Part shown: in pieces, positions 1,447 to 3,633 of the stretch
Layout: the number at the start of each line of letters is the position of its first letter
How positions within the stretch are numbered: position 1 is the stretch's first letter
Virus record (IMG/VR): IMGVR_UViG_2700989170_000002
Strand: one strand, 5' to 3'
Length of the DNA stretch: 4,414 nucleotides
Origin: a virus
Lineage: Duplodnaviria; Heunggongvirae; Uroviricota; Caudoviricetes
Notes under the pieces: generated by a model
Database searches by the model: none
What the model was told of the DNA's origin: nothing
The model's input: the letters and a program-made list of their open reading frames with translations, nothing else
Position numbers and translations under genes: made by a program

Positions 1447-1918
1447 GGTTGAATAGCTCCTTGATACGAGAGCGCCGCTTATCGCGATCTCCCTTATCAG
1501 GTGTCACGTCTTCAACTTGCGACTGCTCTTTGAGGCCCAAATCACGGGCGATGATGTTAGCGTTGAGAAGGTCAGCGGCTGCGCCAGAGAACTTCTGGTC
1601 GTAGATGATGTCTTCCGCTCGTGATGTGACGTCAGAAAAACCTTCCATTGACCGGAAGGTTCCCCATGTTTGCCTGGTGATATCAAGGAAGGTACACAAT
1701 CCTGAAATAGTCATGGCTCGCATCTTAGGGACATTAGCCTTAATTATTTCTCCCTGATATGAAAATACCTTACCCTCCCATAGCGGGTTATCATCAGCCC
1801 ACTCGAAGTATTCACAACAAGCAGCCCACAGCGCCTCAGGCGATTCGAATTTAGGGTTTCGCCCATGACTACTGCGGGCCTCCCAAAATCGGTTGCCCTT
1901 TGGTGCTGCCATATTCAT
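1424..1918 (-). CDS. Phage terminase small subunit (TerS), putative
   Basis: A 164-aa ORF lies immediately upstream of TerL, and its stop (1426-1424) overlaps the TerL start by about 23 nt, the usual terS-terL coupling. The N-terminus is basic ([31 protein letters not shown]...), as expected for a DNA-recognition region, and the C-terminal tail is charged. Start could be the ATG at 1918 or 1912. The assignment rests on position, size and composition, not on a verified homology search. Confidence 0.7.
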
Positions 1919-1935
1919 CTCACTTAATCGTTATT

Positions 1936-2115
1936 TCAGGTTAAGGACTCTTTCGCGCCTTCAATCAGTGACTGCTTCAGCAATTCGAGTGTACCAATCG
2001 CCTCGCATAAACTGATTTCACCATCATAATCATGAATAACGCTTTCAAGCCGCTCGTATAGCTCTTGAGTAATTGGGAATTTCTTCTCCTTACCCAAATT
2101 GATTACGCGGCTCAC
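1936..2115 (-). CDS. Small hypothetical protein (59 aa), GTG start, translationally coupled to the upstream 80-aa ORF
   Basis: Not in the ORF track. GTG at 2115-2113 follows a GGAG Shine-Dalgarno at 2125-2122 with a 6-nt spacer, and sits 1 nt past the TGA of the upstream ORF. Translation: VSRVINLGKEKKFPITQELYERLESVIHDYDGEISLCEAIGTLELLKQSLIEGAKESLT, stop TGA at 1938-1936. The frame is closed upstream by a TAG at 2142-2140. Composition is protein-like and probably helical. It ends about 20 nt before the TerS start. Confidence 0.4.
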   Translation of the reverse strand: MSRVINLGKEKKFPITQELYERLESVIHDYDGEISLCEAIGTLELLKQSLIEGAKESLT

Positions 2116-2116
2116 A

Positions 2117-2359
2117 TCATGCTCCGGTAGTAAACAGGTCTAACGCTTCCTTCGATTTACGCACCGCTTCGATAGTTCGGGTCGTGATATCTGAATTAGC
2201 GCCACCTGACTGGAAGTGAATTTTGAATAGCTCAAGCTTCAGCTCGTCAGTGCCAATGAATTGAAATGCTTCTTCTGCGGCTGCGTTCTGGTTCATGACC
2301 AGTTTGTAAATCTCTAACTGGAATTTCTGTTCTTCAGTCATGGGAATAATCTCTGCCAT
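2117..2359 (-). CDS. Small hypothetical phage protein (80 aa)
   Basis: ATG at 2359 is preceded by GGAG with a 6-nt spacer (minus-strand sequence ACGGAGCCAACAATG). Protein: MAEIIPMTEEQKFQLEIYKLVMNQNAAAEEAFQFIGTDELKLELFKIHFQSGGANSDITTRTIEAVRKSKEALDLFTTGA. No motif recognised. GC content is similar to the terminase genes. Confidence 0.55.
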   Translation of the reverse strand: MAEIIPMTEEQKFQLEIYKLVMNQNAAAEEAFQFIGTDELKLELFKIHFQSGGANSDITTRTIEAVRKSKEALDLFTTGA

Positions 2360-2428
2360 TGTTGGCTCCGTTTATCCGTTAAAAGGGATATCAGTTAAGT
2401 TATCCCGTGTAGGGTATAAGCCATTGTC

Positions 2429-2451
2429 GAGACCACTCATTGAATGGTCTC
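2429..2451. repeat. Perfect 7-bp inverted repeat (GAGACCA / TGGTCTC) with a 9-nt spacer in the non-coding spacer
   Basis: Plus strand 2429-2435 GAGACCA and 2445-2451 TGGTCTC are exact reverse complements. No U-tract follows on either strand, so this is not a canonical terminator; it could be a protein-binding site or an RNA hairpin. Confidence 0.35.
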
Positions 2452-2607
2452 TGCAATAACCGATGTCTTTCCATCAGTCCGCCACCACAAAGAATCTTTT
2501 TTTGCCATAAGGCAGGAGGTTCATCTTTCAGTGGCTGCCAGTGTTATTTCCCCACTTACTGGCTTGGGTTGTTTCGCTGTACTGCCGTTAATTAGTGAGT
2601 CCGGGGA

Positions 2608-3093
2608 TTATTTCAGTTCGTTACCAGGCATTTCTTTTAGCTCTTTCAAATGACAACGATTGAGGCTAAACCACTCCCCGTGCGACCTATAGTTGTAATA
2701 TTTTTGGTGCAATTTGGTTTCAAGCTCTCTATCGGCCGGAATCTTTGCAATTAGATTTAGCTTCCCACCACTCATGCGAGATATCTCTGAAATTCGTTTA
2801 TTAACCCTGCGACTAAACCCTATTTTTGTTAGCCCACTATCTTCAGCATGCAGAACGTACACATATGATTTTTGCGAAGCACTGGGTGCGACTTTGTTGT
2901 AATTAATCATGTCAAACATAAAGCCTTGCTTTAGCAAAGTTTCAAAAAAGATAGAATTAACACACCCATTCCTTCTCAGCTCTGCACTTAGCTTGTCAAT
3001 TTCCTCTATGATGTCGCCAGACCCCTTTCCACTTATAAGAAAATCTTGGTACATGCGACCAATTCTTGAGGTAATTTCAACAAAGTTATTCAT
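2608..3093 (-). CDS. T5orf172/MUG113-family (GIY-YIG-like) domain protein, 161 aa; accessory gene of unknown function
   Basis: ATG at 3093 with an AAAGG Shine-Dalgarno-like sequence about 8 nt upstream. The C-terminal half (about codons 77-145, nt ~2659-2865) carries the motif order YVYVL...KIGFS...RRVNKR...GEWF, which matches the GIY-like / (Y/K)IG / conserved Arg / GEWF pattern of the T5orf172 branch of the GIY-YIG superfamily. The N-terminal ~75 aa have no recognised motif. The gene lies in a stretch of about 37% GC, against about 50% GC in the terminase genes. Confidence 0.7.
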   Translation of the reverse strand: MNNFVEITSRIGRMYQDFLISGKGSGDIIEEIDKLSAELRRNGCVNSIFFETLLKQGFMFDMINYNKVAPSASQKSYVYVLHAEDSGLTKIGFSRRVNKRISEISRMSGGKLNLIAKIPADRELETKLHQKYYNYRSHGEWFSLNRCHLKELKEMPGNELK

Positions 3094-3239
3094 AGCGTTT
3101 ACCTTTTAGAAAGATGAGCCTGTTCGCACAGAAAAGCCGCCCCCGAGATGGTCGCCACCATATACGGCAATTCTCAGGCTCAGCTTTCTGAAAGACTCGG
3201 GATTGTTACGCGCTGCGATGCGCGGTTTACTGCAGATGT

Positions 3240-3344: not shown

Positions 3345-3633
3345 NNNNNNNNNNNNNNNNNNNNNNNNNNNNNNNNNNNNNNNNNNNNNNNNNNNNNNNN
3401 NNNNNNNNNNNNNNNNNNNNNNNNNNNNNNNNNNNNNNNNNNNNNNNNNNNNNNNNNNNNNNNNNNNNNNNNNNNNNNNNNNNNNNNNNNNNNNNNNNNN
3501 NNNNNNNNNNNNNNNNNNNNNNNNNNNNNNNNNNNNNNNNNNNNNNNNNNNNNNNNNNNNNNNNNNNNNNNNNNNNNNNNNNNNNNNNNNNNNNNNNNNN
3601 NNNNNNNNNNNNNNNNNNNNNNNNNNNNNNNNN
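3345..3633. other. Run of 289 N (assembly gap or masked sequence)
   Basis: The sequence shows N at every position from 3345 to 3633. The run removes the 3' portions of Rz and Rz1 and any sequence between them and position 3344. All ORF-track entries that span it (3282-3785, 3298-3762, 3325-3723, 3335-3934) are artefacts of translating N as X. Confidence 0.99.

Follow-up and report, generated by a model that had tools for sequence, protein, structure and literature searches.

The window, that is, the whole stretch of 4,414 nucleotides of Caudoviricetes DNA analysed here, carries the lysis-to-terminase region of a P22-like phage on its minus strand. A lysozyme gene (4407-3931) is followed by an Rz-type spanin gene (3934-3335), part of which is masked; the run of N at 3385-3633 covers the middle of this gene and presumably the embedded Rz1 as well. 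Next in order come a gene for a 161-aa MUG113/T5orf172 protein (3093-2608; phrog_4284), an orf25-like ORF of 22 codons (2372-2440; MSGLDNGLYPTRDNLTDIPFNG), and two small genes, orf80 (2117-2359; 80 aa) and orf59c (1936-2115; 59 aa), which correspond to P22 orf80 and orf59c and to HK620 hkbM and hkbN, respectively. A spacer of 17 nt (1919-1935), which is kept in natural orf59c-deletion variants, separates the orf59c stop from the ATG of terS (1424-1918), whose product is a small terminase subunit of the P22 gp3 type (Pfam GP3_package, E=9e-31; phrog_606, E=8e-72). The gene for the large terminase subunit, terL (1-1446), has a GTG start that overlaps the end of terS and runs off the window as an open frame of 482 codons; its counterparts in related loci carry Terminase_6N/6C.

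At the DNA level, the window is 97% identical to HK620 and about 95% identical to P22 (94-97% for the two). Around orf80 there is no difference of substance from P22; upstream, the MUG113/T5orf172 gene stands in place of rha, and pid is missing. The former gene, which is GIY-YIG-like, replaces P22 rha or HK620 hkbK (KilA-N), occurs in only 3 of 80 related loci, and encodes a protein with a weak PADLOC match to PDC-S57 (E=4e-4). The stop codon of this gene (window 2610) is precisely where homology to P22 restarts, making it another mosaic joint in addition to the one at the end of orf80 described below. At the site of the pid moron, 27 bp (2374-2400) stand in place of 631 bp in P22 (L001 2712-3342; the end of orf25 plus pid), which matches the "no insert" state reported for this site in related phages (Cenens et al, 2013). 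The orf25-like ORF agrees with P22 Orf25 (MSGLDNGLYHRLDIIRFIPSMWGGG) over its first nine residues only, the two parting at the pid junction, which suggests that orf25 may encode no conserved protein. Between the MUG113 gene and this ORF, a terminator-like hairpin with a T-run (2498-2519) lies on the plus strand, opposite the late genes; in phage L (L095), annotated minus-strand terminators are found in the equivalent region.

The two small genes are arranged very tightly. On the minus strand, orf80 extends from an ATG at 2359-2357 to a TGA at 2119-2117 and is preceded, at a distance of 6 nt, by a GGAG Shine-Dalgarno sequence (2369-2366). A lone T (2116) parts its stop codon from the GTG of orf59c (2115-2113), and a second GGAG (2125-2122), contained within the last codons of orf80, lies 6 nt before this GTG. 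Rereading the coordinates from the sequence thus bears out the layout of two ORFs, each with its GGAG and with a 1-nt gap between them, which had been proposed in the initial annotation. The same annotation described orf59c as hidden by its GTG start. The start codon is indeed GTG, but the gene is present in the public annotation of P22, HK620, and RefSeq Escherichia coli genomes, the last of which label the pair "DUF2560 family protein" and "hypothetical protein".

Both products belong to catalogued families. Orf80, which also appears in the program-made ORF list, matches Pfam DUF2560 (PF10834) with E=1e-43 and 147.7 bits against a gathering cut-off of 25; its residues 5-76 align to profile positions 1-72 of 72, corresponding to full-length coverage. 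It also matches phrog_571 (E=2e-41), so the view that neither protein has a recognised motif was mistaken for Orf80. Orf59c matches phrog_3546 (E=1.4e-42), with residues 1-59 spanning profile positions 1-59 of 59. P22 Orf80 and HK620 HkbM are 98.8-100% identical to the window Orf80 and are encoded in the same place, downstream of the lysis genes and the variable accessory genes and ahead of terS. P22 Orf59c and HK620 HkbN are 97-100% identical to Orf59c over the aligned residues and start at the same GTG, 1 nt past the orf80 TGA; only the C-terminal residues differ, reading ..ESLT in the window and ..ESST or ..ESSA elsewhere. The pair was thus on record before this analysis, and its discovery value is small, both genes having stood in the P22 and HK620 annotations for about twenty years or more and also in Pfam or PHROGs. 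Our literature search found no mention of orf59c and only incidental mentions of DUF2560; the orf80 described in a paper on an Stx2 phage is a different gene.

Several observations support the reality of both reading frames. In divergent Salmonella and Hafnia homologues, ATG replaces the GTG of the window at the same position (GGAGCCTGAT-ATG; GGAGCATAGCC-ATG), supporting the assigned start of orf59c. Across 19 distinct DNA sequences from loci picked independently of orf59c itself, pN/pS is 0.26 in the annotated frame versus 0.88 and 1.67 in the other two. For orf80, 75 distinct DNA sequences encode only three proteins, and third positions account for 39 of the 44 variable sites. This set was chosen by protein identity, which biases its ratio; we nevertheless consider twelve percent synonymous divergence without amino-acid change to be telling. 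The 59-aa frame is also kept in related phages, as seen from purifying selection, its family HMM, and its conserved length. As judged from their patterns of substitution, both frames are thus shown to be independent protein-coding genes under purifying selection.

Expression signals were sought around the pair. A promoter scan of positions 1850-3150 returned no sigma-70-like sites, against 2.3 expected, and no same-strand terminator flanking orf59c was found. Since the scan was empty, we dropped the idea that the pair forms an autonomous operon. Both genes would instead be transcribed with the late operon, their own promoter being undetected. From the geometry of the junction (TGA-T-GTG), ribosomes ending at the orf80 stop would restart 1 nt further on and translate orf59c. 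The RNA fold predicted at this junction shows no structure beyond that of shuffled sequence (z=0.28).

The interval between orf80 and terS varies strongly among relatives. Among phage records searched with tblastn, 178 have an orf80 match and 45 an orf59c match; similarly, part of the segment has a match in 911 of 5,426 complete E. coli genomes, but most of it in only 143. Of 80 IMG/VR loci encoding an Orf80 with 99-100% identity to that of the window, 17 have orf59c (at least 60% coverage). Where it occurs in P22-like loci, it always begins 1 nt after the orf80 stop. Otherwise, one of the following comes directly after this stop: a terS of the phrog_309 or Sf6 type, a dec gene (phrog_3018, the family of the head decoration protein of phage L), a gene of phrog_1365, to which orf129 of ST64T and phage L belongs, or an HslV-family peptidase gene. 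Loci with a GP3-type TerS hold orf59c, Dec, Dec plus phrog_1365, HslV, or nothing in this interval, and orf59c is found with both GP3-type and Sf6-type TerS. In 11 loci, the window-type terS start is retained and orf59c is cleanly gone, with the junction GGAGCATGATG|CTCAACCTGAAATAAC. Three loci lacking orf59c (L009, L042, and L064) encode a TerS that is 100% identical to that of the window. The end of orf80, GGAGC(A/G)T(A/G)A, is the same before orf59c, three TerS types, dec, phrog_1365, and the HslV-like gene.

These alternative neighbours and clean deletions show the orf80-terS interval to be a hypervariable cargo slot, with a mosaic recombination joint exactly at the orf80 stop codon. Comparison of the loci further shows that orf59c is optional, being one of several alternative cargo genes of this slot, and that it can be lost without any change in TerS. 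By the same comparison, orf80 is shown to be the conserved last gene of the variable region after the lysis cassette, and the GGAG in its tail would serve as the ribosome-binding site of whichever gene comes next. The definition of this slot and of its joint is part of the modest value of the study.

In distant phages, too, orf80 is found at this boundary. In a Klebsiella phage, the order is lysis genes, DUF2560, two further genes, and terS. Salmonella prophages carry more cargo 3' of orf59c (L086; L088-L089, 3170-3313; L091-L094, 3168-3500, with 2045-2377 in L094), including an ORF of 47 aa overlapping the end of orf59c and a gene whose 110-aa product weakly matches DUF1737 (E=0.0015). In the locus with the fused orf80-orf59c (L126), genes for a Tad2-like protein (PF11195, anti-Thoeris family) and Phage_gp49_66 lie between Rz and orf80 (283-783); given this Tad2-like gene, the lysis-to-terminase region of P22-like prophages carries candidate anti-defence cargo. 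HK97 contains an unannotated remnant of the first 28 orf80 codons (L097 1501-1584; 92-96% identical; phrog_23132), which directly precedes the HNH endonuclease gene near cos, at the right end of HK97-like genomes, and also occurs in HK75, HK544, HK446, HK106, and mEp phages. This remnant is the mark of an old recombination joint.

The Orf59c family is wider than the P22-like phages. A profile search of 1.84 billion representatives yielded 199 relatives, nearly all of 50-65 aa; phrog_3546 was matched by 54 of 54 sampled relatives and a Pfam family by none of them. The conserved core comprises V4, L7, F13-P14, E18-L19, an E-Y-x-G-x-x-S turn, and an invariant G41. The family is acidic, with a median pI of 4.7, a net negative charge in 106 of 111 members, and C-terminal tails that are often very acidic, whereas its N-terminal 16 residues are roughly neutral. 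The predicted strand region is variable, contains indels, and is nearly missing in some members. A subset of phrog_3546 relatives has a basic N-terminal extension of 25-40 residues (...KILQP..H...TPE.A..AV...); variants were noted among P0185, P0197, P0200, P0239, P0253, P0267, P0274, P0288, and P0311, and others end acidic (..EDEDDE).

Distant orf59c loci were located with a degenerate DNA pattern; a scan of genome contigs with the Orf59c alignment gave one locus, and three of four single-protein viral scans for distant relatives gave none. The genes found lie in diverse surroundings. For example, one is placed between replication genes and NinB, RusA, and Q (Providencia phage PSTCR7lys; L107), another adjoins a DNA methyltransferase gene near an integrase gene (L105), and a third stands at the left end of Erwinia phage AH03. 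Others lie between TerL and head-morphogenesis/portal genes (L120) or directly 5' of scaffold and major head genes (L113). The lack of a constant neighbour points to an autonomous function of Orf59c. About half of the distant relatives examined are located among packaging or head genes, and we therefore retain the possibility that the family may be loosely linked to head morphogenesis.

Structure predictions were made for both proteins. The AF2 model of Orf80, an acidic protein, has four helices (residues 9-20, 25-35, 39-51, and 58-77; pLDDT 87, pTM 0.74), and the structures that resemble it, generic bundles or viral proteins yet to be characterised, include no informative relative. Orf59c, folded as a monomer with moderate confidence (pLDDT 68), is predicted to form two short strands and two helices, so the earlier impression that both products look helical holds for Orf80 and fails for Orf59c. 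The strand-helix-helix topology of the Orf59c model, a simple unit, superposes on solved ribbon-helix-helix (RHH) domains, which suggests with modest confidence an RHH-like fold. Sequence comparison returned no RHH Pfam family at E<=1 for the window Orf59c or at E<=0.1 for 54 relatives, and profiles of the two families gave nothing significant against solved structures (best PcrA, E=0.4, and ribosomal protein L29, E=0.18). The variable strand region of the family would be untypical of a sequence-specific RHH repressor; together with the absence of an RHH match, the acidity of the family, and the lack of a nearby promoter, it argues against Orf59c as a simple RHH repressor.

Taken together, the pair very probably represents known late-operon accessory genes of P22-like (Lederbergvirus-type) phages, and the initial description of two separate, closely coupled small genes of accessory nature just upstream of terS has held up. 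Previous experiments in P22 showed that orf80 is needed for neither lytic growth nor lysogeny (PMC11016777; bioRxiv 10.1101/2023.08.15.553423) and that a phage deleted for orf25 to orf80 remains viable (PMC11016777). That Orf80 is conserved although laboratory growth does not require it would fit an accessory function needed only under certain conditions. Orf59c would be an acidic dimer with an RHH-like core that most likely acts alone, binding DNA or a protein partner, and its function would be an accessory one, between phage and host or between phages, instead of packaging. Whether its predicted fold engages DNA in the classical RHH manner is a tentative matter on which we lean slightly towards doubt, and a protein-binding or inhibitor role is about equally tentative. 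The RHH-like lead can be put to the test in a model phage that lends itself to clean deletions and binding assays. Moreover, about one in six complete E. coli genomes (911 of 5,426) carries DUF2560, on which purifying selection is strong; any role found for it would apply broadly.

Among the more specific readings, the one that fares best takes both proteins for anti-defence or host-takeover factors, small late products that would neutralise an immunity factor of the host or of a prophage. Action against a defence system or on the host is plausible for Orf80 and Orf59c alike, since it would suit small, acidic, dispensable proteins encoded in an accessory region. Both proteins count as conserved yet dispensable, the deletion evidence concerning orf80. 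Their surroundings are hypervariable, with the Tad2-like gene in one related locus and T5orf172/MUG113, KilA-N, or Rha genes in others, and phrog_3546 genes shift between genomic contexts like accessory cargo. Against this stand the searches of known anti-defence and defence families, in which PADLOC matched neither protein and Pfam and PHROG returned only families of unknown function, as well as the late expression of the pair, which is itself inferred; on balance, we regard this reading as possible but unlikely. A broader version would make phrog_3546 a widespread, acidic, RHH-like family of about 55-60 aa with a mobile accessory or anti-defence role, whose members might, for example, bind a protein or nucleic acid of the host or of a prophage and block it, and DUF2560 a second conserved late accessory factor. 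We consider this combination somewhat less likely still.

A role in packaging, in which Orf80, Orf59c, or both would aid TerS in pac recognition or terminase assembly, was suggested by the position of the pair directly upstream of terS in the late operon. The placement of several distant phrog_3546 members among terminase, portal, or scaffold genes is consistent with it, and the predicted RHH-like fold could bind DNA. However, orf80 is dispensable in P22 and far commoner than orf59c, an identical TerS occurs without orf59c, at least two unrelated TerS types are preceded by orf59c, and other relatives of the gene lie in nin or early regions. A terminase accessory subunit would be co-inherited with a particular TerS and hold a fixed place, and orf59c does neither. 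A packaging role for the pair is thus unlikely, and its specific form as a terminase cofactor is improbable.

We also considered a self-regulated module, similar to acr-aca or toxin-antitoxin pairs, in which Orf80 would be the effector and Orf59c an RHH repressor or antitoxin. The layout, a small effector followed by a tightly coupled small RHH-like protein, would suit such a module, as would the invariable position of orf59c directly 3' of orf80 in P22-like phages. Yet about 80% of the sampled loci have orf80 but lack orf59c, orf59c relatives elsewhere have no DUF2560 neighbour, toxin families gave no match, and no promoter or operator-like signal was found upstream of the pair. These observations make the module very improbable. 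It is harder still to believe that orf59c is untranslated and that its frame persists through a constraint on DNA or RNA. The GTG start could be taken to favour this, but selection confined to the orf59c frame, the ATG starts of divergent homologues, the conserved length and hydrophobic pattern across the 199 diverse family representatives, and a junction RNA structure no better than chance all speak for translation.

The least credible reading, that the pair is a single gene of about 140 aa broken by a frameshift into a pseudogene, rests on one fused 140-aa protein (P0088) from a single Logan contig, a read-archive assembly, which has CTGTTACTACC where the window has CTGTTTACTACC and is thus short of one T in a TTT run. 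An intact single ORF was looked for in relatives and found only there: P0088 is the sole fused product among 93 Orf80 matches, none of the 64 Orf59c matches exceeds 72 aa, and all other homologues are separate. Orf59c homologues mostly measure 55-64 aa and Orf80 about 80 aa where its start is correctly called, each family holds to its own length throughout Enterobacterales (about 80 and 55-62 aa), the family models span each protein end to end, orf80 stands without orf59c in most loci, coupled to other genes, and purifying selection acts on each frame separately. These data refute the split gene, and two tempting readings, this one and the packaging cofactor, can be laid aside.

The pair can be compared with several known systems. 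The RHH superfamily was represented by Arc/MetJ/CopG, the N-terminal domains of the antitoxins ParD, TacA, and MazE7, the TraM N-terminal domain, and the PutA RHH domain. Orf59c differs from these in having no sequence-profile match, in the net acidity of its family, and in an extra N-terminal strand pairing, in which strand 2-6 pairs with 12-16 inside one chain of the predicted monomer, the model from which the likeness is drawn. Whereas a type II toxin-antitoxin locus has an obligate toxin neighbour and an autoregulated promoter, orf59c is flanked by a DUF2560 gene, which mostly occurs alone, and by terS.

Parallels are also found among the lambdoid morons and in the late region of phage L and ST64T. 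Like P22 pid, which lies between orf25 and orf80, orf59c separates, in some phages only, two genes that adjoin each other in relatives (11 loci), and its junctions are sharp. In contrast to pid, which is divergently transcribed from its own promoter and has its own terminator, orf59c is co-oriented with the late operon, shows coupling geometry, and has neither signal detectably of its own. The late regions of phage L and ST64T contain the same slot, with a DUF2560 gene, optional cargo, and then terS; in phage L, the order is Rz, orf118 (DUF2560, 44% identity), orf129, dec, and gene 3. Consistently, the Dec and orf129 (phrog_1365) genes of these phages fill the slot in loci that encode the same Orf80 protein as the window. 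The cargo itself differs, Dec being a capsid decoration protein of known role and Orf59c a putative accessory protein.
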